Notes under the pieces: model-generated
The model's input: the letters and a program-made list of their open reading frames with translations, nothing else
What the model was told of the DNA's origin: nothing
Database searches by the model: none
Made by a program: the position numbers and the translations under genes
Assembly: GCA_041665545.1 (NCBI GenBank)
Contig: JBAYIQ010000002.1
Span: 2,369-66,368, forward strand
Length of the DNA: 64,000 nucleotides
Source: Patescibacteria group bacterium
Lineage (GTDB): Bacteria; Patescibacteriota; Patescibacteriia; UBA1558; GWA2-36-10
Direction of reading: 5' to 3'
Shown: positions 38,214 to 60,544 of the stretch, one piece after another
Position numbering within the stretch: position 1 is the first letter of the stretch
Layout: each line of letters begins with the position of its first letter

Positions 38214-38257
38214 CGGGTTAGAAATTAATTTATATTATTATTTTTTTTAATCATTTT

Positions 38258-38821: not shown

Positions 38822-39411
38822 TAAGCTGCGTCAACTAACCACTGCTTATCACTTTTTACTAAATTAACTTTTATATCTTGATATAATGTATTAGAAACTA
38901 ATTTACCATCCACCGACTTTGTTTCTTGTCTTTGAGTCTGGACCGTAATATCTGCCCGACTAGCAGAAATACTATTCACCTTCTGGGAAATACTCTTAGT
39001 GGTAATTCCTGTATAGCTTGTGGCCTTATAATCCATTTCTAAATTTTTTAAATAAATAGCCATCTTGTCAGTACACTGACCGAGAACTTGCTTGATATTT
39101 TCTCCTGGCAAGTCCGAGGAATAAGTGCCATAACGCTCAGCAAAATTCAGGGCTGTTTGGATGGCCAATAATTCGTCATTACTAACAATTGGCGACACTT
39201 CTTTGTATTGCAAATTGGCACTAGCCGGTTTAAACTCTGGCAATTGGTTACTATTTTTATCATTGGGCTTTTGTCCAAAATCAGTCAATTTGAAGGCCAA
39301 GAACAGAGCCACGGCAACTATTATAACCACCAAGGCAATTATAATTATTTTTTTTCTTTTTACTGCATCCATATATTTTATATTTACCCCGTTAAATAGA
39401 ATTAAAGCCAC
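38812..39411 (-). CDS. bitopic membrane protein (possible VirB8-like role, speculative)
   Basis: 199 aa with an N-terminal TM helix then a ~150-aa extracytoplasmic domain; directly downstream of the VirB4-like gene. Confidence 0.3.
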   Translation of the reverse strand: MALILFNGVNIKYMDAVKRKKIIIIALVVIIVAVALFLAFKLTDFGQKPNDKNSNQLPEFKPASANLQYKEVSPIVSNDELLAIQTALNFAERYGTYSSDLPGENIKQVLGQCTDKMAIYLKNLEMDYKATSYTGITTKSISQKVNSISASRADITVQTQRQETKSVDGKLVSNTLYQDIKVNLVKSDKQWLVDAAYWQ

Positions 39412-39519
39412 GCTTTAATTCTAAATTTATTTTATTAGTGTATTTTGTTTTCATAAAACCATTATTTATTTCTTGCTTAAATATATTACTTGGAAAATAA
39501 ATTTATTTAACGGGGTGAA

Positions 39520-41427
39520 TTATTTTTCTTCCGCGATCATAGATTCCTCAAACTCTTTTTTGGATTGCTCAATTTCCAACAACTGTCTAGGGTCAGAAGT
39601 GATGATTAGATGTTCAGCGTATGAGGCCTGCACTTTGATAGCGGCGTGCTTGGCTCCAGCAAAAAATATACCCTCGCCCACTCCTGATTCTAAGAGTAAA
39701 TATTTTTCCCCTTCAGTCAACATGAATGTCTTTTGGATCAAATTGACAGCGGCTGGTGACTGCTTGAGCAACAATTGCATTGAAGAGTTGGTGACGATGG
39801 CATTACCAAATGGCGAAGTCAAAAAGTCATTGACATCTTGAGTGATGGTAGTGACGCCAAGATAATACTTACGACAACGCTTGACCAGAGCAAACATAAA
39901 TTTGGCACTATCATCATGACGCATCATAATCCAAGCTTCGTCAACTACCAAAATGCGCCGTTTCAATTCACTACGAATAATATTCCAAATATAGTTCACA
40001 ATAACATACATGGCAATTGGCCGGAGCTCATCTTCCAAGTCCCTGATACAAAAGACGATCAATTGATTGTTGACCTTGACATTGGTTGGACTATTGAATA
40101 GACCGGAAAAAGTACCTTCAGTATATTTCTTGATCCTCAAAGCCATATCTTCTCCGCCCTCCATGCTGAGTAAAACCTCTTCCAAATCAGACATCAACGG
40201 TGGCTCAATATTACTCAAATCACTGGCTGGCGTAATATCTTTTTTGGCATAAGTCTCGATCAAGGCCCGATCCAATAAAGAATCCTCAGTATTGGTGACA
40301 TTACCTATCATCAAGCGAATCAAGCCTTTGAGAGTAATTACCGCGCTACGCAATATATCCTCTGGTTTGCTATCGCCACCAATACCACGCGGTAGATCAA
40401 AAGGATTGAGCTTGCTTTCGGAGTTCAAAGACACGTTGATATAGGCGCCGTTGACAGCTTCTGACAAGTGCTGATATTCATTCTCTGGGTCAATGATAAT
40501 CACATCAGTGCCCAACATCAAGGAACGCAATACTTCTAGCTTGATGGCGTAACTTTTGCCAGCACCCGAAGTAGCGAAAACGACCATATTGGCATTTTGC
40601 AAACTAAAACGATCAAATAATATCAAACTATTGTTGTGACGATTGATACCGTACAAAATTCCTTGATCAGAGGTCAGTTCAGAGGACACAAAGGGAAAAG
40701 ACGAAGCAATCGGTGAACTGTTCATGTTGGTGGTGATCCCCAGCTCGTCATTACCCAAAGGCAAAGTAGAGTTGAAGCCCTGTTCAGCTTGCCACAAAGC
40801 CCGGCGAGAATAAATCAACTGTGTGCCTAGTAAATTTTCAATGCGATCAGAGACAAGATCTAATTCTGTTTTGTCTTTGGCGTACAAAGTAATATAAAGG
40901 GCAAATTGAAAAAACTTTTCACTGCCTTGCGACAAGCTATCACGCAATCCCTCAATATCTCTCAAAGCAATTTCGGCAATAGGATCGCGTGGCGCTCCTT
41001 TTTCGGCATCAGCCATAATTTGCGCTTCCATGGTACCGACTTTGTTTCTCAATTGCTTCAAGACTAGCCGTATATTCATGGGATAAAAATACATGCTAAT
41101 GTCCAAAGTCAAACTTTCATTGATAATGGGCGCAAACCAACCAATAGACACATAACGCGGATAAGTGACCACAAATATTGTGCGTAAAAAAATATCATTG
41201 AGCTGCAAAAAAGTACTCTCAATTTTCATGGCCGCCGGAGCGATGATATCGCGCACTGAAACAATGCCTTCGCGCAAAACTTTTTCCGCTTCCAAAAGCT
41301 CTTTGTCACTCTCCTCTTTTTGCTTATGGCTGGCTTGGGCCTTTAGGGCTTGAAAACGTGCCGCTCCTTCTTCAGCGTTCTTATCGGCGGCTTGTTTTAT
41401 TTGGTTGGCTTCAAACATTGGTCTCAA
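39520..41427 (-). CDS. VirB4/TrbE/CagE-family type IV secretion ATPase, ATPase domain ORF
   Basis: 635 aa with Walker A FATSGAGKSY, Walker B ILVVDEAW and GVTTITQDVNDF, plus the conserved YPRYVSIGWF region of VirB4. Confidence 0.75.
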   Translation of the reverse strand: MRPMFEANQIKQAADKNAEEGAARFQALKAQASHKQKEESDKELLEAEKVLREGIVSVRDIIAPAAMKIESTFLQLNDIFLRTIFVVTYPRYVSIGWFAPIINESLTLDISMYFYPMNIRLVLKQLRNKVGTMEAQIMADAEKGAPRDPIAEIALRDIEGLRDSLSQGSEKFFQFALYITLYAKDKTELDLVSDRIENLLGTQLIYSRRALWQAEQGFNSTLPLGNDELGITTNMNSSPIASSFPFVSSELTSDQGILYGINRHNNSLILFDRFSLQNANMVVFATSGAGKSYAIKLEVLRSLMLGTDVIIIDPENEYQHLSEAVNGAYINVSLNSESKLNPFDLPRGIGGDSKPEDILRSAVITLKGLIRLMIGNVTNTEDSLLDRALIETYAKKDITPASDLSNIEPPLMSDLEEVLLSMEGGEDMALRIKKYTEGTFSGLFNSPTNVKVNNQLIVFCIRDLEDELRPIAMYVIVNYIWNIIRSELKRRILVVDEAWIMMRHDDSAKFMFALVKRCRKYYLGVTTITQDVNDFLTSPFGNAIVTNSSMQLLLKQSPAAVNLIQKTFMLTEGEKYLLLESGVGEGIFFAGAKHAAIKVQASYAEHLIITSDPRQLLEIEQSKKEFEESMIAEEK

Positions 41428-42097
41428 TATTTAATTTACTTATATCTTCTAGGGGTTGTTTTTGAAATAAATTTGGATTGTAGCTATTGTAATAAACTTC
41501 AATTAATTCCTGCGTCTTGAGCCGTTCACTGCGCAAACCCAAACTAGCTAAACCAGACTGGATGAAACTACAACGCTTGTCTAGTTGGGCGCTAAATTCA
41601 TCAAGTCGCTTGCGACTTAAACGCACTATTTTAGCTGAGGAAAAAACTGCTCCAAAACGATTGACAAATTTGCGACCCTTGTCGCTTACTGGATTATAGG
41701 GCACCACCACATAAAATCTTTTGCTCATGATTTTTTCTAGGGTCAAAAGCTCTAGCACAAACTGTCGATAATCAGCGGTTTGGATGCGCAATAATTCATT
41801 GGTCTGCTCTTTTTCTACTTTTTTTAGACGATTAAGATAATCATCAATATTAAGTGGCCGTGACTGAATCAATACTTGCAAAGGATAGTCCAAGGTATTC
41901 AAAAAACTCACATAGCCAGAAATAATAGCCGCTTGCTCGTCTTCTGATTTGAGATCAAAATTTATAGAGGAAACCAAGAGTACTCCCCGCACCGTGCCAT
42001 CATTCAAAATCACCAAGTCATCACGCACCTCGGCAATGTCCAAAAATCTTTGAGTGGAAACTTGTGGCTTATTACCAGCCAACTTTTTACTACGCAT
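41411..42097 (-). CDS. VirB4 N-terminal (CagE_TrbE_VirB-like) domain encoded as a separate ORF
   Basis: 228 aa; FLDIAEVRDDLVILNDGTVRGVLLVSSINFDLKSEDEQAAIISGYVSFLNTL matches the VirB4 N-domain pattern. It overlaps the ATPase ORF by 17 nt in a different frame. Confidence 0.5.
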   Translation of the reverse strand: MRSKKLAGNKPQVSTQRFLDIAEVRDDLVILNDGTVRGVLLVSSINFDLKSEDEQAAIISGYVSFLNTLDYPLQVLIQSRPLNIDDYLNRLKKVEKEQTNELLRIQTADYRQFVLELLTLEKIMSKRFYVVVPYNPVSDKGRKFVNRFGAVFSSAKIVRLSRKRLDEFSAQLDKRCSFIQSGLASLGLRSERLKTQELIEVYYNSYNPNLFQKQPLEDISKLNIETNV

Positions 42098-42101
42098 ATT
42101 A

Positions 42102-42572
42102 TTATTTATTTATTTTTCCGTTTGGTAAATTATTCATGGTATTGGCCAACAGTTCTCCTTGATATACTCCGCCAGTATCAATAATCAATGATAGTTCTGA
42201 TAATTTTTTGCCGGTCACCATTGTTTTGGGAGCTATTGTTTGCACTACTAAATTTTCATCTTTATTTTTGCGCTCTTCAATTTTAATATATTCTTTTTTC
42301 CAAATCCGCAATCTCGGTCTTTTCAAAGTCTGGATAAGGGACAACAAAAACATAGGAAAAATAGCACCATTTATTTTAACAAAACCAAAGATTACTATTA
42401 ACAAAATAATAACTATAGTCTGCGTCAAAAACAAAGCAAAATCAGCCAAACGATAACTAATAAATATAAAAAGAGCCCCAACGATAACAATGGCAAACTG
42501 CCGGACAGTAATCGGTCCCCAGATTCTATCCTCGGCATCAATAAATTGTGGCACAATAAAACGATTTTGCAT
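42102..42572 (-). CDS. PrgI/VirB3-like two-TM membrane protein
   Basis: 156 aa with two adjacent TM helices near the N-terminus; located immediately upstream of the VirB4 ORFs, as VirB3 and PrgI are. Confidence 0.4.
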   Translation of the reverse strand: MQNRFIVPQFIDAEDRIWGPITVRQFAIVIVGALFIFISYRLADFALFLTQTIVIILLIVIFGFVKINGAIFPMFLLSLIQTLKRPRLRIWKKEYIKIEERKNKDENLVVQTIAPKTMVTGKKLSELSLIIDTGGVYQGELLANTMNNLPNGKINK

Positions 42573-42577
42573 AAAAG

Positions 42578-43789
42578 CTAAAAGCGTAATAATTTATTTA
42601 AATCGCCAATGGCGTTAAACTCTTCGATGGTCAAAACTTCTTGGCCGGCGGCTTTTTGTTCGGCAATCAGCTGGGATACCTCCTGACCCTTCATCAAGCT
42701 GGAAGCGCCTAGATCCAAATATAGCTTGTAGACTGGGCTTTTACGCCAAGCAGCAATACCCATTGTTTTTTTGGTTACTGACTCCTTTTCTAAAATATTG
42801 ATTTTCTGCAACAACTTCTGGGCTCTCTCAGATGCTGTATTACCATAGCGCCTAAAAGTAGACAAAAGCATATTTTCTAATTCCTGCACTGGGCCAGTCA
42901 AAACTGCTTTTTCTTTGCCCGAAGCTAAATTAGCTTTGGCCACCACATCAGACATCAGTGGCTTGACTGGACTAATCTGCTCCCCGCGCATGACTTTGGG
43001 CATAGATGGTGTACTGACTATCTCTGGAATCTGTTCCTCTACTTTTGGTTTAAGCTCAACTTTTATTGGTTCAATTTTTGGTGGCTCGGGTTTCTTTTCT
43101 TCCACAAAATCCGTGGCCATTTTGACTGGAGGAAAAGCATCTATAATCTCTGGTTTAGCTGGTTTTTTAGGTAATTCGGCCACGTCTTTTTTGATATCAC
43201 TCTGCCTGACTACCAAGCCACCTTCAGCCTCTATCCTTTCTTTGATGCCTTTGACTATAGAACCAATGTGGTCAATCACTTGATTGGATAAATTGTGGCC
43301 ATTGGAAAACACCTTTTCAATCAAGTATCCTCTACTAATAATATAATTCTTTCGATTGCGAAAATAATCAAACAAAATATTATTAAAAATTTCTTGATTA
43401 TTTTTGTCCAAAAGTAAATTATTTTTTTCCGCTATTCTTTGAGTGATTTTTTCCAAACTATACTTCTTACTCTCATCCGTGGGTAAATTTAAATTAAAAT
43501 TTTCAATCTGTTCGTGGTCTTCCGGATGAAAAACAAAAATAGCCGGCTCGTGCGCCTGTCCGCCACCATGAAAAAAATCAAAATTAGCATCAAGCGGAGC
43601 AACATTGAGGGTGGTCAATTCATGTGGAGGAGCTATTTCCAAAACAGTCCTACTATCTACGGGCCTGATGTCACTGGGTGGAGTATTTTTTGTCTGGTGA
43701 TAGGGTTTTAGACGCCCAGACAAATCTCTAACCAATAAATCATCAACCCAAGGTACACTGGTGCTTGTTTGGCTTAAAAAATCAGGCAT
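42578..43789 (-). CDS. hypothetical protein with Pro/Lys-rich linker (first gene of the VirB4 operon)
   Basis: 403 aa with no TM helix and a PEPPKIEPIKVELKPKVEE low-complexity segment. Confidence 0.35.
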   Translation of the reverse strand: MPDFLSQTSTSVPWVDDLLVRDLSGRLKPYHQTKNTPPSDIRPVDSRTVLEIAPPHELTTLNVAPLDANFDFFHGGGQAHEPAIFVFHPEDHEQIENFNLNLPTDESKKYSLEKITQRIAEKNNLLLDKNNQEIFNNILFDYFRNRKNYIISRGYLIEKVFSNGHNLSNQVIDHIGSIVKGIKERIEAEGGLVVRQSDIKKDVAELPKKPAKPEIIDAFPPVKMATDFVEEKKPEPPKIEPIKVELKPKVEEQIPEIVSTPSMPKVMRGEQISPVKPLMSDVVAKANLASGKEKAVLTGPVQELENMLLSTFRRYGNTASERAQKLLQKINILEKESVTKKTMGIAAWRKSPVYKLYLDLGASSLMKGQEVSQLIAEQKAAGQEVLTIEEFNAIGDLNKLLRF

Positions 43790-45460: not shown

Positions 45461-45471
45461 ATTTTTTATGA

Positions 45472-47376: not shown

Positions 47377-47387
47377 TTTTTGTCATT

Positions 47388-47645
47388 GCGCACATTATCT
47401 GTGCGTCACCCCGCACTGACCACGTTAAACGCGTCATCCCGCACTTGTTGCGGGATCTAACCAAAAATAATGACACGCTAGATTCCTGCCTGCGCCCCCT
47501 TCGCCGCGAGGCGAGCGGGAATGACGACAAAAAGCATGAGAATGACAACTTTAAGTATGTCATTGCGAGCGAACGTAGTGAGCGTGGCAATCTACAGCTT
47601 TTGGATTGCTTCGTCGCCTGCGGACTCCTCGCAATGACGAATCAT
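47388..47645. repeat. array of ~5 degenerate 35-45-bp hairpin repeat units (GTCATTGCGAGCGAAC...GCAATC / GTCATCCCGCACTTGTTGCGGGATC type), some in inverted orientation
   Basis: Read directly; the units at 47559-47593 and 47602-47637 are inverted copies. The array lies between convergent genes and generates the spurious ORFs 47357-47590(-) and 47361-47651(+). Confidence 0.6.
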
Positions 47646-47657
47646 GATTAACATAAA

Positions 47658-48899
47658 TCAATTATCCTGCCAGCTGAGCTGGTTTTTTGTCACTTGCAAA
47701 TTACGCCACTTGAGCTGACCATCTTTTTGATCAAGGTAAGTCACTTGACCAGATTGTGCCCACTGACTGGTCAGATAAAAAGCGGCCACGGCTGATTCTA
47801 GTTCTGACAAACGCAATTTTTCGGCTAAGATTAGCTCCAAAAACAAACGCCGACCCAAGAGCTTATCTTGATTGCTACCAAACCATAAGCCAATATCATT
47901 GCCATAGCGCACGCCAATAAATCTTTTCAAAATACTTATGAAGCGACTATCCTCACTAATCAAACTATCTAGGGCCTTGTGACTGACTAGTACTTTCAAA
48001 CAGCTCAATACTTTTTCTTTGTCATTCATAGCCACGGCATTCCACAAAATATCCCGCACTTTATAAATATCATTTCCCGCTTCTGATAAAACAAAACTTT
48101 CTGGCAAAAGCAATTGATCTAGTTTGTTGACATTATTATTGAGGTTGGCAATAGCTGTTTCGATATTAATTACTTCGGGAGCTTGTTCATCTTTTTCCTG
48201 CTTTAGCTCAGCCCACAAAACGCCCTCTTGATTCTCAATATCAATGGGCATATTTTCATCATAGGACAACAAGAAACAGCGCAAAGATTCTCGCTCTTTG
48301 GGATCAAGCTCTAGGGCATTGGGACTTTTGGCTAGATATTGCGCGCGTTGCAAGGAGTTGTGATAGCCAGCGCCAAGATAATGCACGTAGTCTTTGATCC
48401 AGTTGTCTAGAGTAGGCATCAAGCGCCGAAAATCAGTGCCCGCAATCTTTTTGGCTGAAATGCGTAACTCTACAAAATCATCATAATCGGACATAAATTG
48501 CTTGACTGTGCCGTGAGCATGCTCAGGAAATAATTTTTTTTGCAAAGTGACGCTTTTTAAATGTATTGCTTTGGGTACTTTGCCACCCAAACGCAAAATA
48601 AGACGATCAACATTACCTAAATAATCTTGGATAGGCCAAAAAATATTTAGAGCAATGTCTAATGAAATAGCTCTTAGGTCATAATAACTTGCCCGCTCCA
48701 TCTCTTCCAAGCGTACCGGAAAATCAAGTACAGATATTTTCTTTAAAAAAACTAAATTTACCAAGTCCATGATAAAAAAAGTCTGAGTATTGTTTAAAGG
48801 ATAACGTCCAAAAATCTGAATATTTTTATTAATCAGCTCATCACTGGAAATATATTCCCGAATTTCATCGGGAAGATTCTTTAGATCATCTATAAACAT
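47658..48899 (-). CDS. hypothetical cytoplasmic protein
   Basis: 413 aa with no TM helix and no recognised motif. Confidence 0.35.
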   Translation of the reverse strand: MFIDDLKNLPDEIREYISSDELINKNIQIFGRYPLNNTQTFFIMDLVNLVFLKKISVLDFPVRLEEMERASYYDLRAISLDIALNIFWPIQDYLGNVDRLILRLGGKVPKAIHLKSVTLQKKLFPEHAHGTVKQFMSDYDDFVELRISAKKIAGTDFRRLMPTLDNWIKDYVHYLGAGYHNSLQRAQYLAKSPNALELDPKERESLRCFLLSYDENMPIDIENQEGVLWAELKQEKDEQAPEVINIETAIANLNNNVNKLDQLLLPESFVLSEAGNDIYKVRDILWNAVAMNDKEKVLSCLKVLVSHKALDSLISEDSRFISILKRFIGVRYGNDIGLWFGSNQDKLLGRRLFLELILAEKLRLSELESAVAAFYLTSQWAQSGQVTYLDQKDGQLKWRNLQVTKNQLSWQDN

Positions 48900-48906
48900 T
48901 TAAAAA

Positions 48907-51435
48907 TTAGGTTATTCCTTGCTTCTCCTCTAGTAGCTTCAATTGAGCTGTAGTTAATCCCTTGTCAGCAATTGGCGAATGAGGAGTTCCAGCAACTACT
49001 GGATTCATCTTTACTAATCTTGTTAATTGACTTCTATCCAGTTTCAAAAGATCGTCAAACCTTAAGGTCTGAGCAAATTTTGATAAGTCTGCATCATTCA
49101 CTGCCCCCGAGTTAGGGTCAGCAAAAGCTAAATGTCCATACTTCAAATCATTATGAGCTAACTGCCCTTGAGCTGCAAATTTTGCATCAACAGCTGACAT
49201 TCCTTTGGCAACACCAACTTTTACTAAATCGGGTATTTGACTAACAAAGTTAGCTATAATATCTGACTCCTGAATATCACCCTTATTTATAGATGGTATA
49301 TTAATTATATTTTGGATGCGTCCCATTCTAATCTGATTATTAACAATCTCCTTTCGCTGGGTATCAGTATTTGATAGATTGTACATTTCGGCTGTCTTAC
49401 CAGGACTGGCATGACCAGCAACATCTCTAAATAGAGCTGATTTTTCGTCAATTTTAATCAAATCCTCTGCTTTGGTAGTTGTGGCCAAATTCTTAGCAAA
49501 TTTTGCTCGCTGTACATCATTGGCTTTAGCATATTCGGCATTAATACTACTCTTTGTCCCATCTTTCGCGTCAAATTTACCCAACAACAACATTGCTTTA
49601 CCAAAATCTGACTTATCGTCATCGATGGTGCCAACTAGCTTACCACTACGTACGTGCTTATCCAACTCATCCATAAAATAATCACGCATTTCTTTTGTCA
49701 TGGACTCTGCACCGCTAGTAACGGCCTTAAAATCCTCACTGAGTAATCTTTGGGTCTGTGCTAAACTCATGCCCTGAGGATTCATCTTGCTCAGTGTAGC
49801 GGCAACACCATTAGCAGTAATTTGTTTTTCAAAACTTTCAGGAGTGGCTACAGCCATACTTCTAGCACGCAACCTTTCTAGTGATTTGTAATCACCAGCT
49901 GCTTCAAAGTCTTTAGCCATGTCTTCAGCTCTTTTGGGATCAATGGCCTTTTTACCTTCTAAGTCAAGTTTTGCTAAATTTGCTTTAGCTTCACGCTTAC
50001 CCATAAATCCAACACCTTTAGCCACTGTCTCATTATATTCTTTAATTTGCTCATCAGACATGCCTTCAAACCGCTTGTCATATTTGGTCTGCTTTCTCTG
50101 CCTGCGACTAGATTCTTTGGCTTGCAGTGCTAGGCCAGTCCTTTGCATAGCGCCAATACCCAAAGCTCCACCCATAACTGCCAAACCCTTGCCCGTAAAA
50201 CCACCTGCTTGACCCACAAAACCTTTAGCTCCGCCTTCTCCGCTAGTGCCTTGCCAAGCTAGCCTGGTTGCTCCTCCAACTGCAAAACCAGCGGCGCCAA
50301 TAGTAGCACCCCGGCCAATGCGACTACCCCACTTCTGCAAGCTGTTTGAGGCCTTGCCAGCCACCGAGGCACCGGCGGCGCCTGAAGAAGCGGCAAACTT
50401 CAAGCCAGCCATAAGTAGCGTAATAGCAATCACAAAATTCAACATATTGGCTGTATCGGCTACTTCACTAACAACTGTATCGTATGTTTTAGTCTCATTT
50501 ACATATTTAGTACCATCTGGTGCTGTTGTATTTTCAGGAAAAGAACTGGCGATACTGCCCTGACCTACAATACTAAAAGCCAGCCACATAAAAAAAGCCA
50601 AAGCCGGACCAGTGGTCAAATTCTTGGATAACTCAGTTTCCCACTGCCCGTAATAGCTACTGGTTTTGGGAAAAGCGCGAGCCAAAAAAGCCATTGGCGC
50701 TAAAATAATCAAAATCCAAAAGCTAATAATACGCATAACAAACATAATCAGTATCACACCCATAATAACTGTAGTAATGATCATCATAATACCGCCCAAA
50801 ATCATGGCCATTAAATAAGATACTCCCGTATAAGTGCCAGTAACCCCACTAGGAAGATTCATTATTTTTTGCAAACCTAAAGCAACTACGTAATTACCAG
50901 CCAGATTCTCAAGAACTGGCGCTAGAAATGTCAAAGTTATGACTTGCGAAAAATCAATTAATAAAGCAACAATTGACTTGCTAAAATTTATCAAAATAGC
51001 CATAAGTAGTAGCTTTGACAAAAGCTGGCGATAGCCAAAACCCTGCACCTGTAAAATAGTACCAAAGGCCATAAGCAGGAGGATCAAAATAAAAAACATA
51101 TTAGCCAAATCACGCACTGTTACCCAAGCTTGTTTTACCTGATCTTGACCAGTAAAATTATTATAGGTTCCAACTGTATTAAACATTTTTATCTCCAACA
51201 GCAAAATGACACTGGGTAGCTTGATGGTAAAAAGATAAACAATGGTTCCAAGTTGTTTGGCTAGCCAATCGCCTGTATCGGCGGTAATTTTATTATTTAT
51301 AAATCCTTGCACCAAATTACCTGCGACATTTGTTGCATCTGCCTGAGCTTCAGCAAATTGCGGCACAAAAGTAACAAAAGTAAAACTGGCCAACAAAATC
51401 ATCAGCAAATACTTGGGCTTTTTAAATAAATTCAT
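48907..51435 (-). CDS. VirB6/TrbL-like polytopic membrane protein with Gly-rich hydrophilic C-terminal half
   Basis: 842 aa with a signal-like N-terminus, about 8 TM helices in the first ~340 aa, then a Gly/Ala-rich segment and a long hydrophilic tail. Confidence 0.4.
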   Translation of the reverse strand: MNLFKKPKYLLMILLASFTFVTFVPQFAEAQADATNVAGNLVQGFINNKITADTGDWLAKQLGTIVYLFTIKLPSVILLLEIKMFNTVGTYNNFTGQDQVKQAWVTVRDLANMFFILILLLMAFGTILQVQGFGYRQLLSKLLLMAILINFSKSIVALLIDFSQVITLTFLAPVLENLAGNYVVALGLQKIMNLPSGVTGTYTGVSYLMAMILGGIMMIITTVIMGVILIMFVMRIISFWILIILAPMAFLARAFPKTSSYYGQWETELSKNLTTGPALAFFMWLAFSIVGQGSIASSFPENTTAPDGTKYVNETKTYDTVVSEVADTANMLNFVIAITLLMAGLKFAASSGAAGASVAGKASNSLQKWGSRIGRGATIGAAGFAVGGATRLAWQGTSGEGGAKGFVGQAGGFTGKGLAVMGGALGIGAMQRTGLALQAKESSRRQRKQTKYDKRFEGMSDEQIKEYNETVAKGVGFMGKREAKANLAKLDLEGKKAIDPKRAEDMAKDFEAAGDYKSLERLRARSMAVATPESFEKQITANGVAATLSKMNPQGMSLAQTQRLLSEDFKAVTSGAESMTKEMRDYFMDELDKHVRSGKLVGTIDDDKSDFGKAMLLLGKFDAKDGTKSSINAEYAKANDVQRAKFAKNLATTTKAEDLIKIDEKSALFRDVAGHASPGKTAEMYNLSNTDTQRKEIVNNQIRMGRIQNIINIPSINKGDIQESDIIANFVSQIPDLVKVGVAKGMSAVDAKFAAQGQLAHNDLKYGHLAFADPNSGAVNDADLSKFAQTLRFDDLLKLDRSQLTRLVKMNPVVAGTPHSPIADKGLTTAQLKLLEEKQGIT

Positions 51436-51471
51436 AAATATGTTTTATTATTCTAATGATATTTTTTTCGA

Positions 51472-54400
51472 CTATTGAAGTACCACGATCCAGCCGGCAA
51501 AAGAGGTCCAAGCACTCCAGTTTCCCCAGTTGTCCTGTACCCTGACTGTCGGCTTATAGCATGAAGCATTATCAATGTAAGGCTCGTTCATTGGTGTGGA
51601 AATGTCACCGTCACACAAATCTCCCTGACCACCAAGCTGATAATCATGATAAAAAGTCTTGTAGGCCTCACGGCAAGCTCGCTCCGTGCCACCAAAACCC
51701 TGCTTAGTAGTAAGAATTTGGCCGGGCAGTGGAGCATCAACATTACAATCAGGTATATTGTTTTTGTACTTGCCGGGTATGGTGGTGATGGCGCTACCAT
51801 CTCCCCAGTCAACCTCGATACTTTTGACTGGCATGTGATCGGGGTGGGCATAATAATAAAACTTGAGCGAAGCAAAGAAAGATTGTTTAGCCTCAATACT
51901 GCCACCCTGCGCCTCGTTGACTGTCACACCATTAATCACTACTTTATTTGCGTCGCGACAAACATCCGAGCCACAAACTGTCAAAATCCGCGGTACAAAA
52001 TCTGGACCAGCCAGAGTGTTTTGGCCACGAGTTGCGGCCGCGCCAACATAAATATTATCTACTGTGTATGGCTCATAGACACTATTTGTATTATTCCACT
52101 GCATGTTATAAACCCGATAAAACATGTAAGCCAACTGAGTATGAGCTGCCGTCAAATCAGTTGATAAATTGCCTGTACCGGGCGCATAAAAAGTAGCGGC
52201 CGCTAGCGGTGAAAAAGTGCTGGCATTTACTGGCACGCGAACATTGACTACATCTTTGCCTAAATAGCCCAAAGCTGAACCAAAATGAGTAAATTTGTTA
52301 TTTTCACCAGTGATGCTGGCATAATTAACATTAGAATTTTGGATGAACCCAGACTTGTAATAATAGGACAGCCAAGTATTTGGCGTGGGATAATTGTTGC
52401 GTCCTGAATTGCCACTGCCGGTTTCATTGCGCCACCAAATATCCGTCCTAACCCAAGATTTGTCACCTTCAGAGTCAAGATCAACCACAATCTTACACTG
52501 CTGATAACAGGCCATGCCTGTACAGGTCCTGCCAGACATTTCGGCTGTATAAAATGCTGAATCTGCATCACATGGAACATCACACGACTTATCGGGAAAT
52601 GGTGTTGGATTTGAAACCGCTGTAACACCAGTAAATATATCTGACTGCAGACAGCCATCGATAGAGCTCTCATCCACCAACCAAGTATCAAGACCATCTT
52701 CTACTCTGGTCACATTGCCAAGGGCTTGGGCTATCAAGCCATTGTAAAGTGTATCATCAGGATCAACGCCTTGCCTTATTTTTAAACCACCGGTGGCGCT
52801 AGCTATACTTATTGGTTCGACACTTAGGATGTTACTAAGACAACCAGTTACTGAATTCACATCACGCATGGTTGTACCATCTGCTGACCAAGTGTCGCTA
52901 CCATAAATGATAGAGCCATAATCCACACACAAATAAGGAGAAGAAATATCTTCCACACAGTTCACAAAAGCGCAGCCCGGCACAGAGTCTGAGCCACATG
53001 AAGCTTCTAGAGCCCTATAGGGGTCTGAAGTCATCAAGCACGCTCGCCCTTTTGCTGGCGCTTCAGGCGCTCCACATATTGGCCCCGTGCCACTCACAAC
53101 ATCGGCTAATTCGGCTTTGACATAATAATTCCAAGATCCGGGATTACAAAACCCTTGATAAACTTGGTGATAAGGCCCATTAAGACATGTATCACTCGTA
53201 CTCGTGCAAGCATTTGACGCGTCATCTGGCCTATCAGGTTCGGCAGTGACTGAGCTAACACAGCCGGTAGTAGGATCGCTCGTTGTGTCACCGATATAAA
53301 TTCTGGCATCCTCATCACCATCTCCGAACCGGTCTATATTTTCATCATAATAAAACAAGTCTATTTTATTTGTTCCCGTATCAAAAAGATTCCTTAAGAC
53401 AGATTTATCAACAACTGGCATCTTGGATAAGTCATTACCCGGCGTCAGGACAAAATCTTCCACTGAAAACTTGGCCCCCTCATAAGAGACGCCCACGCTT
53501 AAGTCTCTTTTTTCTATATATTCAAAGGTGTAAGGTGGAGTGCTTGGTGGTGATGAGTCATAATGATTCATTTTCTCTGGCCGTAAATAGTTGTAGCTTA
53601 TCAAACTACTATTGCCAGCTATACTATTCGCTAAAATTTTTGAACCAGCTGGTATACGTATCAGCAGATTGCAATTCCGAGGGTCAGTACCACCACGACG
53701 ACCACAATATATTCTACTTTCCTGCAATATATAGGGCTCAGTCACTGAACAAAATAATGCCTCCCGACCACCCGGTTCATAATACCCAGCTTCACGGTAA
53801 TTATCATACAGTGAATTAGTACCACTTATCTGGTCAGCTGGATACCACTGGTTGCAATAATTAGTACCACCAGTGTCATTGACCACTTTGGAGTTGGCAT
53901 CATACTCTAGACAAATACCTGACCAATTAAATATAGTTTCGGCTTTTACTTTCTTATCACAAGTTCCATCACTTCTGGAAGTGCCATCGGTATTGTAAGT
54001 ATCACACAAATTATTTTGCGCAAAACCAGCACTGTCCACACAATCAACATTAGTATCAGTATTACCCGAACTACAAATACCTCCCGGACTGGGGAAATTC
54101 TTTGGATAATATCTGACCGTACCACCAGCGCCATAAGTCACCTTGATATAGGTAGCTTCACAGCCATTAGGTGAAGCCGTGATTGGTTCTACCTGATCAA
54201 CCTCACACATATTAGCACCAGCATAAGATTGGAGACGATCGAGACGACCAGAGTCTGGCGAGATAGATCCAGGGAAGGGCGAATCAGATTGGGCATAGCC
54301 CCTAGTTTCTACTCCCAAAGCTTTATTAGTATCAACTACCGGATTGAGTAAACAACGACTGCCACGACACACGCCATTAAACAAATCACCAGCAATGACT

Positions 54401-57400
54401 GCTGTACAATCCGTCCCCTCTCCGCTACAACCTGAGCCATTGTATACCAGTTGTGGCAATGGCGCAGTAGCTGAACCAGCATTGGTCACACCTAATGTGG
54501 CTATCGGCAACATATTTGGTATAGAGTAGCCGGTGTATTCCTCATCGCCAAACTGCATATGATTGTCTGCCCCTGTAGATCGATTTTGATAATTATCGAC
54601 AGTCAAGGCCTGGATTGTTGGCGTTGCCCATTCACCACACTTAGTAACATTATTTTTACTATCAAATTCTGTGCAAGTTCCTATATCAGCACAAACGACT
54701 TTGTATCTATTATTATCATTGTCCCAGACAACCGAAGAAGAGCGACAAGCCAGCCACTCGCTACACTGACGATCTTTGCGGACTTTAAGCAAAACATTGG
54801 AGTCAAGATTACAAGGTGGATCAAGAGTGGTGTCAGTCGGATCACAAGTCACCGGGCTAACTGCCGTGCCTTTAGAAACATTGAGATTATAACTTTGGAC
54901 AGCGTCATAGTTGAGATTCACCATGGTATGATCGCTGTTCCAATTATTGGCTTCCTTGAACAAAACGCAACCATTATTTTCATTGACTTGACCATTGCAA
55001 CTGGCCTTATCTATTTTTTCATTATTATAATAATAGTAGGGTTGACATTCTGCTGAATTGGGATTAAGGGTAAAGGTACCACCAGCCCCACTGCAATTTA
55101 ACTCATCAGTAATGCCTATACACTCGGTTGCTGCCAGTGTGGCACAATCACTACAAGTACCCACACCGCAACCAATAGGATCAGTTGGGTCATAAAAAGT
55201 TGTGCAGAGGTTTTTATCAGCTGGACAAGAGGCCACATTTTCGCCTAAGGCAAAGTCCGCCGCATCATAAGCATTGTCGGTATCCAAGCAACCCAAAGGC
55301 AGTGGGTCTTTGAGGTTGGCCGTCTTGAACCAACCAGTTATTATATTGTTACCAACAGTCACATTGGACTGGTAGGTACAGGTCTCAGTTCTCGGGTCTT
55401 TAAAATAATACGCTCCTTTATCAGAAGAATATTCTTCACAATACAAGTCATCACTGAAGCACAAAGATGAAACATATTGATCGGGATCGTTTATTTTGTA
55501 AACCGTTGGCAAATAGCTAGAAATGGTCCTATCGGGCAGACCCAAGGCCTGACAACCCTGATAGACTGCTGGACAGTATTTTCTATTATCTGGCACCAAG
55601 TAAGTAATGCTGTCAGCTGGCACTGTAATCTGCGAAGGATCAGTTGGGTTATTGTGAAATGTTTCCGTAAATGGATTGTCAGAATTATGAGTATCTACCA
55701 CCGCCATACAACCAATGGCCTCTACGCGACATAAATTCTGGAATGACTTTAAGTTATATTTATTGTTATTGGTGTCAGTGTATGTCTGGCAACCTAGATG
55801 ATAACCAACATAGGGGGTATCACAAGACACTGGTGTCTGCCAAGAATTCCTAATGACATAGATATTACCAGCTACTTCTTTGAGTATGATATTGTCCAGA
55901 AACACACTGCCGTTTTCATTGGCCGCATTACGCCCGGAAGAAAATACAATTTTTGCGCTATTGAGATTATAAGCTGTTGGATCAAGTTGATCGAAATATT
56001 GGGTAACAGTATAGTATTGCCAATTATTAGCTGGTATATTCTGTAATGAAGCATCAGTACCCATACTTATTGGAAATAAAACCTCTCCTCCCGAACTATT
56101 TGTCACCGATAGATTCCAGGCGACCTGTCCGAGCGATACTGATGGCTTCATCCACCAAGACAACTTATATTGCTTGTTATTTTGGATCGCCCCTACGGCA
56201 ACCTGAGCTACGCCATTGGTCCTGTCTAATTTTAGAGAGTGCCCATTTCTTTCCAATGATTCGCTGGACAAGTCTAACACTGTTCCCATCAAGCCCTGCC
56301 AAGGCGTATAAGCGGCGCGCTCAAAATCATCAGTAAATATATTACGGACATTGTTGGCGGTATTGCCATAGTAAGCACGACAACCGTTTTGAGCAGCTGA
56401 GCATTTGTTGCTCAACGACGGTGTAGCTCGATAAACGACATTGGGATTTAGTGTTCTTCGATAGTCGTGACAATCATCGCTGGCAAAAATTACCCGGTCT
56501 TGTAGACGATAAAAACTATTGCCAGCTGGATTAAAAAATTGTCGACAATTAGCGTTAACGCTTGGGTCATCAAGTAAGCTGGCTGTCTCTGTTCCGCAAG
56601 CAGCGACTGTCACCCCAACTCCATTATCATTACAAGCGTTACTACCCGACAAAATATTAGTGCATGGTGCATAAACAGTGCCAGTTGGTAATACTGTAGG
56701 CACATTGCTAGGCAAGGCCTTCCAAGCTCTGATTTGATAACCAGCCACATCAGTGCCTTCCCAAGTGATATAATCTTCTCCTTGATCAACAGACACACAT
56801 TGTCTTAGATAAGTATAATATTCTTTGCCCTCACCGCCAGCAGCCACAGCGTCAACATTGGTGAACTCTTCACAGCCAGCCACTGTCGCTGAACAAGATT
56901 TAGCTGTAGATGGTATAAAATTATAATAATTAAAATCAGCAGTTGGATTTTCAATTAAGTCAAAATTATCTGGCTCTTCGGCAAAACTAGCATAGCCCAC
57001 ACATTCGTTGGGACATAAATCGTTTTGCGAAATAACAGCTGGGATCATGGGGTCGCCATTTGAAGGAGTATAGCCCTGACAACCAATTTCTTGAGCAGTG
57101 CACATAAAGCGACTGCCATTCATATATATTTTTAAATCATTACCATAATTCGAATAAGCTGAAGCCGCGCGAGGTTCACTAACTGCTTCTATTTTAAAAT
57201 TGTCAAAATAAGAAGGCAAAAAACTAACATTGTTAGCATCATACGACCCGAAACCGATCATACATTTGACACTACTGCCAGTATTAAAAGTTCCACTAAT
57301 AACCGCATATTCCGTAGTACTAAGTTCACTGGCCGGTACCATTATATTAGCCTCATCAAACAAATTACCCGCCGAATCATTAGTTATACGGGTTGCCGGA

Positions 57401-59745
57401 ATTGAACCATCTGGAGAAAATATGCCACCATAATTATCATTGGCATCTTTGCAATCATCAATCATAATTCTAGCATATCCTGGATTCTCAGCTCCCGGGA
57501 CTCTCCTAACGGCTATGGACACAATATAATTAGTATTTGGTCGCACAGAAAATCTACCAGGACTAATTTGATCAATAAAAAAATAATCTTCATTAATATT
57601 AGCCAACAAAGCTTTTGAACCACTCACTCCCTCTCCATCCACCAAATTGTTTGGTATGAATGTGGTGGGATGTGCTCCTACGTTAACAAAGTTATCTGGT
57701 AAATTATCGTTGTTTGTGTCTGTTTCAAAATCACCATTAGCCACTAGATTCGCTCCAGTATCAACAGCCATGACCATATATTCAGAACAGCCCGCATAAT
57801 CAGCCGGACAAGTAGCTGATTTGTTGTTCAAAAATAAATCATTAGTATCGGTGGCTATATCTTGGAGAACCCAATCACCATCATTATTTTTTTCTTGCGA
57901 GTAGCGCTTGCAACCAGCTTGATCAGCCGAGCAATAGTCCAGTGATTGTTCCAGATAGGACGCCACTGGTAAATTATCATTTTGAAAAGTCAGACAGCCC
58001 GAATAAATATCACCATCCACACATTCATCACCAGTGAAACGCCAAATATTTTCAGACTTAGTGCAATAGCCATATTCACCAGCTAGACAATTACCCTGAT
58101 CATCCTCACGCAAACAAGTTTTGATATCAGCGCAGTACTGCTGACGATTGCTAGTATCTGGCGACTCTAAGACTGGGGAATAAACATAGGCATTACACAA
58201 GGCTGGCGGGGATTTCAATATCCAATAAGGGTCTATCAAATGATAATATGGATTATTTGTCTCGCCTACGGCTGGTTTAATTTTACATTTTCCAGTATTT
58301 TCCTCAAAACAATCCATGGCCTGTTGTAAAGTGGTCGGTGATGTCATTGGACTGCGTAGAGCGGCCATTTCCCAACCCGTCGGAATAATATTGGCTTTTC
58401 TTAATTTTACTAAATTGCTATAACACAAAGCGTCTTTGTAGCACTCTTTATTGGCATTACGTAAAGTTTCATCACTACCAATGAGTGGCAGACTGCCACT
58501 GATCAAACCATTGTCTATGGCTTCCTGTAAAGTAGTCCGACTAGCCAGAGCTTCTAGAAAATCCGCAGAAATTACACAGTTGTCTGGCTTACGAAAATCT
58601 ACTTCTTCGGGACAAATAGCAAATTCATCCAAAATATTATAGGCCTCCAAAGTTTCTGGCTGTATTTTTTGGAAATCCACAAATAAACCGCCACCACTTG
58701 TTTTATCAACACTAGCCCCGCCTCGAAGTTGAGCCAAAAGACTAGATCGCAAACTAGGATTAGTGGCTTTTTTGCCACCCAAGACTGACCACATGCCGTC
58801 CTTAATCCAACGGTTCATCAATTTGGAAGTAAAAGTATTAACAAAAATATTACCAGCCGTCTTCATAATCGTACCAATAACACCGACCTCTTTTTTTAGG
58901 GCACTATCAGTAACTTTACTGGTGTCTGTCTCAGCCACCACATTGAAAGTGACACCCTGCAGTTGTAAAATAGCCATACAACTAGTCTTTATTTCCTCAG
59001 TAATAGGCGTGGTATTGTCCAGATATCCCTGGCACTTTCTGGTTAATTCCTTTTTAGCCTCGATTGCCTCGGACTCTTTTTGCTCAGCTGACTGACTTAA
59101 CTTGGCAAAAACACCTAAATCAGTTTGCTCCAAAGAAAATCCATTAGCAAAAAAATCTTCCAAGCCCTGACTACCGCCCCTAGTATCAAGCTGGACTTTA
59201 ATCAAGTCAGCCGTAAAATTATCACCAAATTTGCTCCATTCTCTTTTTACCTTAGTCCAATCACAAGTTGGTCTAGGTGGAGCTTTGCTATCAATCAAAG
59301 ATAAGGTCAAAGATAACTTAACTGACAATGAGGGATCACAAAGATTAAAGCCCAAATCCTCAAAACTGTTCTGACTAATTTGACCAATAAATTCTCCCAA
59401 AGCCGCGTCCCGAGCAGTTTGCAAACTCTTGGTAAAACTTTCTCTTTCAAACAATGGTGTCCGGCCGGGTCCGCTGGTCGCCAAGTTGTTGGCCAAATCA
59501 TAAGCCAACTTGTTAGCAAAGGTTGACAAAGTTCTGTTGATAATTTGGGTGACTATAGAGCCTTGAGCTGCTTCTACGGCTGTTTTTGCCCTAGTCCAGA
59601 GCCACTCTTGATAACGAGGCCAATCATACATCACCCATACCGGACCACCGAAGCCAAAACCTTGAGCTGGTCTACTAACCAAAATCACTGAAGTAGCTAG
59701 TAATATCCCGATGATGACTAATATTAATTTTTTGTAACCCGACAT
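51472..59745 (-). CDS. giant (2757 aa) Cys-rich secreted/surface protein
   Basis: N-terminal signal/TM anchor (MSGYKKLILVIIGILLATSVILVS); more than 150 Cys spread through an otherwise hydrophilic, Asn/Thr/Gly/Asp-rich body; a single uninterrupted 8.3-kb ORF. Confidence 0.7.
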   Translation of the reverse strand: MSGYKKLILVIIGILLATSVILVSRPAQGFGFGGPVWVMYDWPRYQEWLWTRAKTAVEAAQGSIVTQIINRTLSTFANKLAYDLANNLATSGPGRTPLFERESFTKSLQTARDAALGEFIGQISQNSFEDLGFNLCDPSLSVKLSLTLSLIDSKAPPRPTCDWTKVKREWSKFGDNFTADLIKVQLDTRGGSQGLEDFFANGFSLEQTDLGVFAKLSQSAEQKESEAIEAKKELTRKCQGYLDNTTPITEEIKTSCMAILQLQGVTFNVVAETDTSKVTDSALKKEVGVIGTIMKTAGNIFVNTFTSKLMNRWIKDGMWSVLGGKKATNPSLRSSLLAQLRGGASVDKTSGGGLFVDFQKIQPETLEAYNILDEFAICPEEVDFRKPDNCVISADFLEALASRTTLQEAIDNGLISGSLPLIGSDETLRNANKECYKDALCYSNLVKLRKANIIPTGWEMAALRSPMTSPTTLQQAMDCFEENTGKCKIKPAVGETNNPYYHLIDPYWILKSPPALCNAYVYSPVLESPDTSNRQQYCADIKTCLREDDQGNCLAGEYGYCTKSENIWRFTGDECVDGDIYSGCLTFQNDNLPVASYLEQSLDYCSADQAGCKRYSQEKNNDGDWVLQDIATDTNDLFLNNKSATCPADYAGCSEYMVMAVDTGANLVANGDFETDTNNDNLPDNFVNVGAHPTTFIPNNLVDGEGVSGSKALLANINEDYFFIDQISPGRFSVRPNTNYIVSIAVRRVPGAENPGYARIMIDDCKDANDNYGGIFSPDGSIPATRITNDSAGNLFDEANIMVPASELSTTEYAVISGTFNTGSSVKCMIGFGSYDANNVSFLPSYFDNFKIEAVSEPRAASAYSNYGNDLKIYMNGSRFMCTAQEIGCQGYTPSNGDPMIPAVISQNDLCPNECVGYASFAEEPDNFDLIENPTADFNYYNFIPSTAKSCSATVAGCEEFTNVDAVAAGGEGKEYYTYLRQCVSVDQGEDYITWEGTDVAGYQIRAWKALPSNVPTVLPTGTVYAPCTNILSGSNACNDNGVGVTVAACGTETASLLDDPSVNANCRQFFNPAGNSFYRLQDRVIFASDDCHDYRRTLNPNVVYRATPSLSNKCSAAQNGCRAYYGNTANNVRNIFTDDFERAAYTPWQGLMGTVLDLSSESLERNGHSLKLDRTNGVAQVAVGAIQNNKQYKLSWWMKPSVSLGQVAWNLSVTNSSGGEVLFPISMGTDASLQNIPANNWQYYTVTQYFDQLDPTAYNLNSAKIVFSSGRNAANENGSVFLDNIILKEVAGNIYVIRNSWQTPVSCDTPYVGYHLGCQTYTDTNNNKYNLKSFQNLCRVEAIGCMAVVDTHNSDNPFTETFHNNPTDPSQITVPADSITYLVPDNRKYCPAVYQGCQALGLPDRTISSYLPTVYKINDPDQYVSSLCFSDDLYCEEYSSDKGAYYFKDPRTETCTYQSNVTVGNNIITGWFKTANLKDPLPLGCLDTDNAYDAADFALGENVASCPADKNLCTTFYDPTDPIGCGVGTCSDCATLAATECIGITDELNCSGAGGTFTLNPNSAECQPYYYYNNEKIDKASCNGQVNENNGCVLFKEANNWNSDHTMVNLNYDAVQSYNLNVSKGTAVSPVTCDPTDTTLDPPCNLDSNVLLKVRKDRQCSEWLACRSSSVVWDNDNNRYKVVCADIGTCTEFDSKNNVTKCGEWATPTIQALTVDNYQNRSTGADNHMQFGDEEYTGYSIPNMLPIATLGVTNAGSATAPLPQLVYNGSGCSGEGTDCTAVIAGDLFNGVCRGSRCLLNPVVDTNKALGVETRGYAQSDSPFPGSISPDSGRLDRLQSYAGANMCEVDQVEPITASPNGCEATYIKVTYGAGGTVRYYPKNFPSPGGICSSGNTDTNVDCVDSAGFAQNNLCDTYNTDGTSRSDGTCDKKVKAETIFNWSGICLEYDANSKVVNDTGGTNYCNQWYPADQISGTNSLYDNYREAGYYEPGGREALFCSVTEPYILQESRIYCGRRGGTDPRNCNLLIRIPAGSKILANSIAGNSSLISYNYLRPEKMNHYDSSPPSTPPYTFEYIEKRDLSVGVSYEGAKFSVEDFVLTPGNDLSKMPVVDKSVLRNLFDTGTNKIDLFYYDENIDRFGDGDEDARIYIGDTTSDPTTGCVSSVTAEPDRPDDASNACTSTSDTCLNGPYHQVYQGFCNPGSWNYYVKAELADVVSGTGPICGAPEAPAKGRACLMTSDPYRALEASCGSDSVPGCAFVNCVEDISSPYLCVDYGSIIYGSDTWSADGTTMRDVNSVTGCLSNILSVEPISIASATGGLKIRQGVDPDDTLYNGLIAQALGNVTRVEDGLDTWLVDESSIDGCLQSDIFTGVTAVSNPTPFPDKSCDVPCDADSAFYTAEMSGRTCTGMACYQQCKIVVDLDSEGDKSWVRTDIWWRNETGSGNSGRNNYPTPNTWLSYYYKSGFIQNSNVNYASITGENNKFTHFGSALGYLGKDVVNVRVPVNASTFSPLAAATFYAPGTGNLSTDLTAAHTQLAYMFYRVYNMQWNNTNSVYEPYTVDNIYVGAAATRGQNTLAGPDFVPRILTVCGSDVCRDANKVVINGVTVNEAQGGSIEAKQSFFASLKFYYYAHPDHMPVKSIEVDWGDGSAITTIPGKYKNNIPDCNVDAPLPGQILTTKQGFGGTERACREAYKTFYHDYQLGGQGDLCDGDISTPMNEPYIDNASCYKPTVRVQDNWGNWSAWTSFAGWIVVLQ

Positions 59746-59764
59746 AGAGTTATTTTATATTTAT

Positions 59765-60544
59765 TTATTTTTTTAATAAATTATCCCTAAACTCGGTTAA
59801 TTCCTGAGTAGTCATTTTATTGATGTCAGCTTCATTGGCTCCTGGTTGTAGTAACAAAAACTTCCTGACTTGCTCTGGAGTAGTGGTAGCTGTCCACGAT
59901 TCAGCCGGTATGATTTCGCTATCGGATATGGCCTGAAAAATTTCCATCAAATCATCATCAGTTAGATTATTCAACTCGTCTTGAGTCATGCCATTATCCA
60001 ACAAAAACTGCCTAAATTCATTGAGCGCCGCTGTACGCAAAGTCAAATCAGTGTTGATAGAGGTATCTTGTAAAATATCAGACAATCTGTTTTCTGGAGT
60101 AATTAGGGCCAGCAGACTACAATCCTCTCCCGGAGGACAGGTGGGATCAGCACCGCTTTTTACTTCTTCAAAATCAGAAACCCCGTCACTGTCAGTGTCT
60201 TCCAGAAAAATACTGGTCCTAGTCTGGTAGAGCTCAGTAAAGTCTGATAAGCCATCGCGATCGGTATCCTTATTTTTCAGTTCCTCCAGGGACACCTCAG
60301 TGTTTTGGTTGGTGTTTAATTCTTTTTGTATAAAGTCAGGAATGACATAACCAACATTTTTTTTGACATTGCCATACCAGTAGTTGACCACAAACAAAAA
60401 TAAAGCTCCAGCCACTAGTACTAGAACTAAAAATAAACCCTTTTTGGGCTTGGATCCAGAAAAATAATGCTCTTCTGAGGCATTAATCAAGTCACTGGTA
60501 TCAACCTCTTCATCGATGTTGATTCGATGCAATTGTTTGGCCAT
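59765..60544 (-). CDS. membrane-anchored protein with thrombospondin type-3-like Ca-binding repeats
   Basis: 259 aa with one TM helix (LFLVLVLVAGALFLFVV) and DTDRDGLSDFTE / DTDSDGVSDFEE repeats. Confidence 0.5.
   Translation of the reverse strand: MAKQLHRINIDEEVDTSDLINASEEHYFSGSKPKKGLFLVLVLVAGALFLFVVNYWYGNVKKNVGYVIPDFIQKELNTNQNTEVSLEELKNKDTDRDGLSDFTELYQTRTSIFLEDTDSDGVSDFEEVKSGADPTCPPGEDCSLLALITPENRLSDILQDTSINTDLTLRTAALNEFRQFLLDNGMTQDELNNLTDDDLMEIFQAISDSEIIPAESWTATTTPEQVRKFLLLQPGANEADINKMTTQELTEFRDNLLKK

Follow-up and report, generated by a model that had tools for sequence, protein, structure and literature searches.

We analyzed a 64,000-nucleotide stretch of DNA from a Patescibacteria metagenome-assembled genome (MAG; contig JBAYIQ010000002.1), called the window here, and found that positions 47658 to 60544 form the upstream half of a chromosomal Patescibacteria type IV secretion system (T4SS) locus, probably of the class ABY1. 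The interval encodes a VirB6/TrbL-like membrane protein of 842 amino acids (p842), a Cys-rich protein of 2,757 amino acids (the giant), a membrane protein with thrombospondin type-3 (TSP3) repeats (p259), and a fourth protein (p413). We are confident that p842 is the VirB6 of this T4SS. The full statement, that p842 is VirB6 and that the giant acts in a T4SS-coupled role, is one toward which we lean.

In the source MAG (NCBI locus tags WCV69_01750 to WCV69_01760), analysis of open reading frames (ORFs) resolved the interval into four co-directional ORFs:

59765..60544, minus strand: p259, TSP3-repeat membrane protein (TSP3_bac E=1.2e-3, 19.1 bits; homologue directly upstream of the giant in related loci)
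51472..59745, minus strand: the giant, 2,757 amino acids (8,274-nt ORF; conserved Cys scaffold; family searches)
48907..51435, minus strand: p842 (TrbL matches in its family; model fold; operon context)
47658..48899, minus strand: p413 (conservation; homologue within the T4SS operon of a distant relative, locus L007)

Because all four genes lie on the minus strand, they are transcribed in the order p259, giant, p842, p413. An earlier note on this DNA had listed three genes, with the TSP3 gene third; it overlooked p413, and the TSP3 gene comes first. The gaps are 19 nt between p259 and the giant gene, 36 nt between the giant gene and p842, and 7 nt between p842 and p413. These four tightly spaced genes form one unit, or operon, whose end is bounded by a convergent methyltransferase gene on the plus strand. 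We saw no convincing terminator in the 36-nt gap, and the scan for promoters and terminators was uninformative. GC content is even over the region. The ORFs are far beyond chance, as the giant family has 1,326 representative clusters and the species-level relatives of p842 number more than 577. Scans of all four proteins against Pfam and NCBIfam gave nothing above threshold.

p842 starts with a signal-like N terminus and has about seven hydrophobic helices within residues 60 to 350. We divided it as follows:

residues 1-30, minus strand: signal peptide (hydropathy)
50386-51345, minus strand: helical transmembrane domain, residues 31-350 (hydropathy and model)
50116-50385, minus strand: Gly/Ala-rich linker, residues 351-440 (composition)
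residues 441-842, minus strand: basic hydrophilic C-terminal domain

Residues 350 to 440 are 47% Gly plus Ala and are followed by a long hydrophilic tail, just as had been described earlier for this polytopic protein. An AlphaFold model of residues 1 to 400, built with 117 sequences, had a predicted local distance difference test score (pLDDT) of 82.5 and a predicted template modeling (TM) score of 0.76. Hydropathy and the model gave an all-helical bundle within residues 52 to 350, with at least five transmembrane helices, and the top matches of the model among 350,542 PDB chains were to R388 TrwI/VirB6. The family of p842, which is confined to Patescibacteria, also matches profiles of this kind: 5 of 30 aligned members matched Pfam TrbL (PF04610) at E<=0.01, and several homologues carry a precomputed match to TrbL_3 (PF19590). 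The homologue P0116 (E 1e-37 to p842) scored 27.8 bits against the curated TrbL cut-off of 25.9, with profile positions 11 to 209 of 215 aligned to its residues 130 to 345, in the corresponding part of the protein, and P0099 scored 23.8 bits. In the distant relatives L005 and L007, a single operon encodes the p842 homologue, PrgI/VirB3, the TrsD-like protein, and VirB4.

We assigned p842 to VirB6/TrbL on three independent lines: the profile matches of its family, the fold matches of the model, which are weak, and the gene context. Two results weigh against this assignment: p842 itself had no Pfam or NCBIfam match even at E<=1, and the matches to TrwI/VirB6 were weak (E 0.016; TM scores 0.37 to 0.47). 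A PDB profile search with p842 returned low-complexity matches only. Taken alone, p842 fails the profile check that the earlier note had set; the VirB6/TrbL call of that note stands indirectly, by way of homologues, operon context, and a weak fold match. Residues 350 to 460 contain 16 Lys and Arg versus 4 Asp and Glu, and the loop at residues 295 to 330 is acidic. By the positive-inside rule, the basic C-terminal domain would be in the cytoplasm; the charge distribution suggests that p842 is N-out and C-in, with a cytoplasmic C-terminal extension.

The other half of the T4SS locus lies downstream in the window:

35932..43789, minus strand: other half of the T4SS locus (profile matches; gene order recurs in related loci), made up of the eight genes below
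42578-43789, minus strand: p403
42102-42572, minus strand: PrgI/VirB3 (PF12666, 35.2 bits versus a cut-off of 27)
41411-42097, minus strand: TrsD-like protein of 228 amino acids resembling the VirB4 N terminus (NF041427, E 3.1e-10, below cut-off)
39520-41427, minus strand: VirB4, 635 amino acids (NF045971 conju_CD1110, 344 bits versus a cut-off of 325, E 1.8e-102)
38812-39411, minus strand: p199, bitopic (weak SpoIIIAH match, E 0.0085)
38258-38821, minus strand: p187, with two C-terminal transmembrane segments
36978-38213, minus strand: p411, with a transmembrane segment and a beta-rich ectodomain
35932-36978, minus strand: M15/VanY peptidase

The nearest gene of this cluster has its start codon at 43789, 3.9 kb from the four-gene module, and virB4 is 6.2 kb from it; a VirB4-type cluster is indeed close by, at distances other than the 5 kb first given. 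The TrsD-like gene overlaps the start of virB4 by 17 nt (41411-41427) in a split TrsD/VirB4 arrangement, and homologues of the TrsD-like protein carry the TraC-like domain PF26593. p403 has no transmembrane segment and no Pfam or PDB match; its gene is directly upstream of the PrgI gene in nearly every related locus and is an unrecognized conserved gene of the T4SS cluster. p199 is possibly a VirB8-like or ring-forming protein, and the M15/VanY peptidase may be a VirB1 analogue. We found no relaxase or VirD4-type coupling protein among the scanned ORFs of the window, in which small ORFs were not exhaustively scanned, and recognized no VirB2-like pilin array in the window, for which no rigorous test was made. 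comF and recG are in the window, close to the T4SS locus, and ksgA is adjacent. The T4SS of the window is of the monoderm type and matches the published chromosomal system of Patescibacteria.

We followed the linkage of these genes in relatives by scanning one genome per species, which gave more than 577 relatives of p842, and by fetching 80 loci and searching them with the window proteins by tblastn. PrgI/VirB4 genes were downstream of the p842 homologue in 44 of the 48 loci with enough DNA. Of these 44 loci, 29 have no genes for S6, SSB, and EF-P between the VirB6-like gene and PrgI/VirB4, and the other 15 do. In most relatives, p842 and p413 are followed directly by the genes for p403, PrgI/VirB3, the TrsD-like protein, and VirB4. 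Since most relatives are contiguous, we concluded that the window locus has been split by an inserted methyltransferase gene and rpsF-ssb-rpsR-efp (43790-47657). The closer relatives of the window share the split arrangement, and the housekeeping block is inverted in L006 and L065.

A giant homologue lay upstream of the VirB6-like gene, on the same strand and at most 6 kb away, in 51 of the 61 loci, each from a different species, whose upstream DNA reached 9 kb or more. In 35 of 59 loci, the giant ORF runs right up to the start of the VirB6-like gene, either overlapping it or leaving about 30 nt; 0.6 to 5.7 kb separate the two elsewhere. Many of the MAG records with Patescibacteria-specific synteny (L008, L011, L012, L019, and many others) bear the titles "uncultured Gammaproteobacteria bacterium" or "Rickettsiaceae," probably through taxonomic mislabeling of the source records.

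The last gene of the operon encodes p413, a protein of 413 amino acids that is predicted to be cytoplasmic and has no known domain. Its family, of about 415 amino acids, is confined to Patescibacteria and highly conserved (41 to 86% identity). A p413 homologue is encoded inside the contiguous L007 T4SS operon (hhalign probability 98.8%, E 4.8e-17). Nothing useful came from PDB sequence and profile searches with p413.

We found that the giant belongs to a large family. An exhaustive search of sequences clustered at 50% identity returned 1,326 clusters, of which 1,119 had E<=1e-30, and a word-indexed search returned 70 homologues of 2,500 to 3,500 amino acids that aligned over the full length with 26 to 82% identity. 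As far as names show, the family occurs in Patescibacteria and Parcubacteria-type genomes only. It is constant in size and apparently has a single copy at a fixed locus. The giant was described earlier as an 8.3-kb ORF for a signal-anchored protein with more than 150 Cys; the ORF and its single N-terminal hydrophobic segment are there, and we counted 102 Cys (3.7%). The Cys come in pairs; of the 102, 75 are kept in 80% or more of the 24 homologues compared, some of which share as little as 26% identity. A C-x6-C-x2-[YF] motif, often in the form C-[SP]-A-x3-G-C, recurs about 11 times between residues 605 and 2187 (for example, CSADQAGCKRY and CPADYAGCSEY). A PKD-like motif, VDWGDGS, is near the C terminus (residues 2645 to 2651). 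By self-BLAST, the giant had no internal domain repeats, and only the short C-x6-C motifs recurred, so that, these motifs apart, it is not a repeat-type adhesin. With its constant length and invariant Cys framework, the giant looks like a scaffold.

Export of the giant is predicted from its N terminus, and two domains are of interest for its function:

59659..59745, minus strand: Sec-type signal peptide, residues 1-29 (hydropathy and family consensus; cleavage inferred)
57124..57771, minus strand: carbohydrate-binding module (CBM)-like beta-jelly-roll domain 1, residues 659-874 (CBM22/CBM16/CBM4 fold matches, TM score up to 0.71)
55849..56346, minus strand: CBM-like beta-jelly-roll domain 2, residues 1134-1299 (CBM_4_9 E=0.13 at residues 1136-1219; fold matches)

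The signal consensus of the family ends in P-x-P-A-x-A-Q. The giant has no LPxT[GAS] (LPXTG) motif, no second transmembrane segment, and no match to a PrgB or polymer-adhesin domain of Pfam or NCBIfam; searches of Pfam, NCBIfam, and PDB sequences gave nothing beyond a weak match to CBM_4_9. The window also contains a gene for a DsbA-like thioredoxin at 158-940 on the minus strand (Thioredoxin_4, E 2e-23; DSBA, E 3e-13). Its product is a plausible oxidase for the giant and for other exported Cys-rich proteins.

We modeled residues 400 to 1599 of the giant with AlphaFold, using 27 sequences, and the model resolved beta-sandwich domains at residues 659 to 874 and 919 to 1309. The fold matches included 4xuo_A (CBM22; TM score 0.71, root mean square deviation 3.4 Å, E 9e-8), 2zex_A (CBM16; TM score 0.70), and CBM4 modules. 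The giant itself scored 13 bits against the Pfam CBM_4_9 cut-off of 25.9, below threshold, and three homologues (P0132, P0167, and P0189) exceeded it with 29 to 36 bits. In the model, two domains adopt the CBM beta-jelly-roll fold, and carbohydrate binding is a prediction. The CBM-like regions are the least conserved parts of the giant, with a column identity of 0.18 to 0.31 in the region of domain 1. Variable CBM-like regions on an otherwise conserved protein are the pattern expected if a fixed scaffold carries modules for ligand recognition.

The first gene of the operon encodes p259, a bitopic protein of 259 amino acids with one transmembrane segment at residues 36 to 54 (nt 60383-60439). 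Its extracytoplasmic domain has a conserved CPxGxxC motif and two exact D-x-D-x-D-G-x-x-D-x-x-E repeats, both kept at 70% or more across 30 homologues:

60164..60268, minus strand: Ca-binding loops DTDRDGLSDFTE (residues 93-104) and DTDSDGVSDFEE (residues 116-127) (motif)

These results bear out the small membrane protein with TSP3-like Ca-binding repeats that the earlier note had proposed. The score of p259 with Pfam TSP3_bac (PF18884) was under the cut-off of 25 bits, and we would count it as a TSP3 repeat protein by motif and not by a curated threshold. The two repeats begin 23 residues apart, at residues 93 and 116. Dockerins carry duplicated Ca-binding segments, and the spacing of the p259 repeats resembles theirs. 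A Dockerin_1 match was obtained with only one giant homologue, P0189 (32.9 bits, above threshold). By analogy, a cohesin-dockerin-like tether between p259 and the giant is conceivable.

Putting these pieces together, we propose that the giant would be exported by Sec and oxidatively folded into a rigid scaffold with about 51 disulfides, for which the DsbA-like enzyme encoded at 158-940 could provide the route. The scaffold would display two fast-evolving CBM-like lectin domains that could bind glycans of the host-cell surface. It would be kept on the cell surface close to the VirB6 channel, perhaps tethered by the Ca2+-binding p259 in the membrane, and the giant would supply the adhesin or contact element needed by monoderm T4SSs. 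On the inner side, the C-terminal domain of p842, predicted to be cytoplasmic, could meet p413 and VirB4. We suggest, tentatively, that the giant docked by p259 may be an integral extracellular part of an essential T4SS in ABY1- and Paceibacteria-type lineages: a stalk or contact device in place of a pilus or adhesin, whose swappable CBM-like domains would recognize host glycans and which would position the VirB6 channel against the host envelope. The role in host attachment or delivery that had been proposed earlier is plausible as a proposal and gains some structural support from the CBM-like domains.

The TSP3 protein and the giant may instead make up an independent envelope or host-adhesion module (a surface scaffold, a lectin-like adhesin, or an S-layer-associated protein), with p842 and p413 as the only T4SS components of the operon and the adjacency as a product of conserved gene order. 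This reading is possible, on the doubtful side, and several observations that speak for it also weigh against a T4SS-coupled giant. L088 and L089 keep the KsgA-TSP3-giant trio with no VirB6-like gene after it, and L090 has its VirB6-like gene 6 kb beyond. At least one genome has the giant and the VirB6-like gene far apart or on different contigs, with distant locus tags (WC348_01885 and WC348_01360), and L005 has the T4SS operon and no giant within 10 kb upstream. Other genes lie between the giant gene and virB6 in 24 of 59 loci. Gene order is broadly conserved in these small genomes, in which housekeeping genes likewise hold their positions and ksgA is as tightly linked to the TSP3-giant pair. 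The 80 loci were those that scored best against p842, which biases the fractions toward close lineages. The giant model is moderately confident (pLDDT 63.6, with Cys-rich parts below 50), and we infer the role of the giant from gene neighborhood and domain folds only. Against an independent module stand the same-strand proximity in 51 of 61 loci, the abutting genes in 35 of 59, and the 36-nt gap of the window. Linkage of the giant and TSP3 genes to T4SS genes, which the earlier note had put forward for checking in relatives, is therefore frequent and falls short of universal.

An alternative in which the giant is secreted to attack polysaccharides of the host cell wall, as an enzyme or toxin whose unrecognized catalytic part is targeted by the CBM-like domains, is improbable. 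CBM4/9/16/22-like domains usually accompany glycoside hydrolases, and about 1,550 residues of the giant are outside the model and have no annotation. However, searches of Pfam, NCBIfam, and PDB sequences with the giant and three homologues found no catalytic family, and the scaffold-like length and Cys framework argue against an enzyme. Gram-positive conjugative elements encode large surface adhesins upstream of their channel genes (for example, PrgB of pCF10). That precedent, together with VirB4, PrgI, and TrsD-like proteins most similar to monoderm conjugation machinery, could fit a conjugative or integrative mobile element with a mating-pair adhesin, a reading made very unlikely by the want of a relaxase or coupling protein among the scanned ORFs, by the even GC content, and by the ribosomal protein, efp, ssb, and ksgA genes that are interspersed in the locus in an order shared by many species, and against which a survey of this clade concludes likewise (PMC12102498).

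Elsewhere in the window, a complete type IV pilus gene cluster lies at 5494-19873 on the minus strand and encodes a PilX_N protein, three N_methyl pilins, an A24 prepilin peptidase, PilC (T2SSF), a PilT-like ATPase, the PilB ATPase, and PilM. With this cluster and the T4SS, the window contains the two envelope machines that have been reported to be essential in Saccharibacteria. Beside the pilus cluster, at 19954-24013 on the minus strand, are genes for proteins of 968 and 381 amino acids with no Pfam match.

The T4SS of Patescibacteria is the first T4SS shown to be essential for the growth of its owner; it is required for the epibiotic growth of Southlakia epibionticum (PMC10633639). The T4SS described here and its VirB6 are of a known kind. 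To them the locus adds a large and divergent family of VirB6 proteins, most of which escape standard profiles, as well as three conserved partner genes (those for the giant, the TSP3 protein, and p413) that appear to be undescribed. Text searches of PMC12102498, its supplements, and other literature gave no description of the giant family, the TSP3 protein, or p413, and in the supplements they gave nothing on CBM_4_9, TSP3, or TrbL. The giant is a testable candidate for a host-contact element, and its variable lectin-like domains could explain host specificity. If the giant were an integral part of the T4SS, its family would set the host range for a large share of uncultivated ultrasmall bacteria.

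Compared with CBM4/9/16/22 modules, two domains of the giant have the same beta-jelly-roll fold (TM score up to 0.71, root mean square deviation 3.4 Å), and homologues pass the CBM_4_9 threshold; unlike many such modules, they have no attached glycoside hydrolase, and the 13-bit score of the giant itself is below threshold. The large Cys-rich extracellular proteins of Peregrinibacteria (Anantharaman et al. 2016, PMC4736985) average 1,655 amino acids with about 7% Cys, vary between strains, and are encoded in a 14-gene cluster. Compared by description only, they and the giant are large and Cys-rich, have signal peptides, lack a functional prediction, and have been proposed to attach to other cells. 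In contrast, the giant is T4SS-linked and conserved from end to end, and it apparently occurs as a single copy at a fixed locus. PrgB of pCF10 is likewise large, exported, encoded upstream of channel genes, and built with a lectin-like beta-sandwich, and for both proteins contact with the target cell is proposed. The giant differs in that it has neither an LPXTG motif nor a PrgB-type domain match, carries 102 Cys in a conserved framework, is 2 to 3 times larger, and is conserved in size and sequence across species, not variable. No adhesins such as PrgB were detected in Patescibacteria in the published survey (PMC12102498).

The term "extended VirB6" is used in a FEMS review of T4SS nomenclature (PMC12857230), for example, for the rvh system of Rickettsiales. 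p842 resembles these proteins in its polytopic helical N-terminal domain, its large hydrophilic C-terminal extension, and its being encoded with VirB3 and VirB4. It differs in that it is too diverged for a direct profile match, has a Gly/Ala-rich linker, comes from a monoderm host, and belongs to a Patescibacteria-confined family. The T4SS of Patescibacteria has been described by Wang et al. 2023 (PMC10633639) and Quinonero-Coronel et al. 2025 (PMC12102498) as MPF-FATA (mating-pair formation, FATA)-related, with a split TrsD/VirB4, no relaxase, and a chromosomal position near ksgA and, in the class ABY1, near comF and recG; VirB6 homologues were scarce or absent in some classes (PMC12102498). 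The window locus differs from these accounts in its giant Cys-rich protein, TSP3 membrane protein, and p413, which the papers do not mention, and in being split by five unrelated genes. It shares with the described system a CD1110-type VirB4, a separate TrsD-like protein, PrgI/VirB3, VirB6, a downstream peptidoglycan peptidase, a neighborhood in which the scanned ORFs include no relaxase or coupling protein gene, and a chromosomal site that adjoins ksgA and is close to comF and recG.

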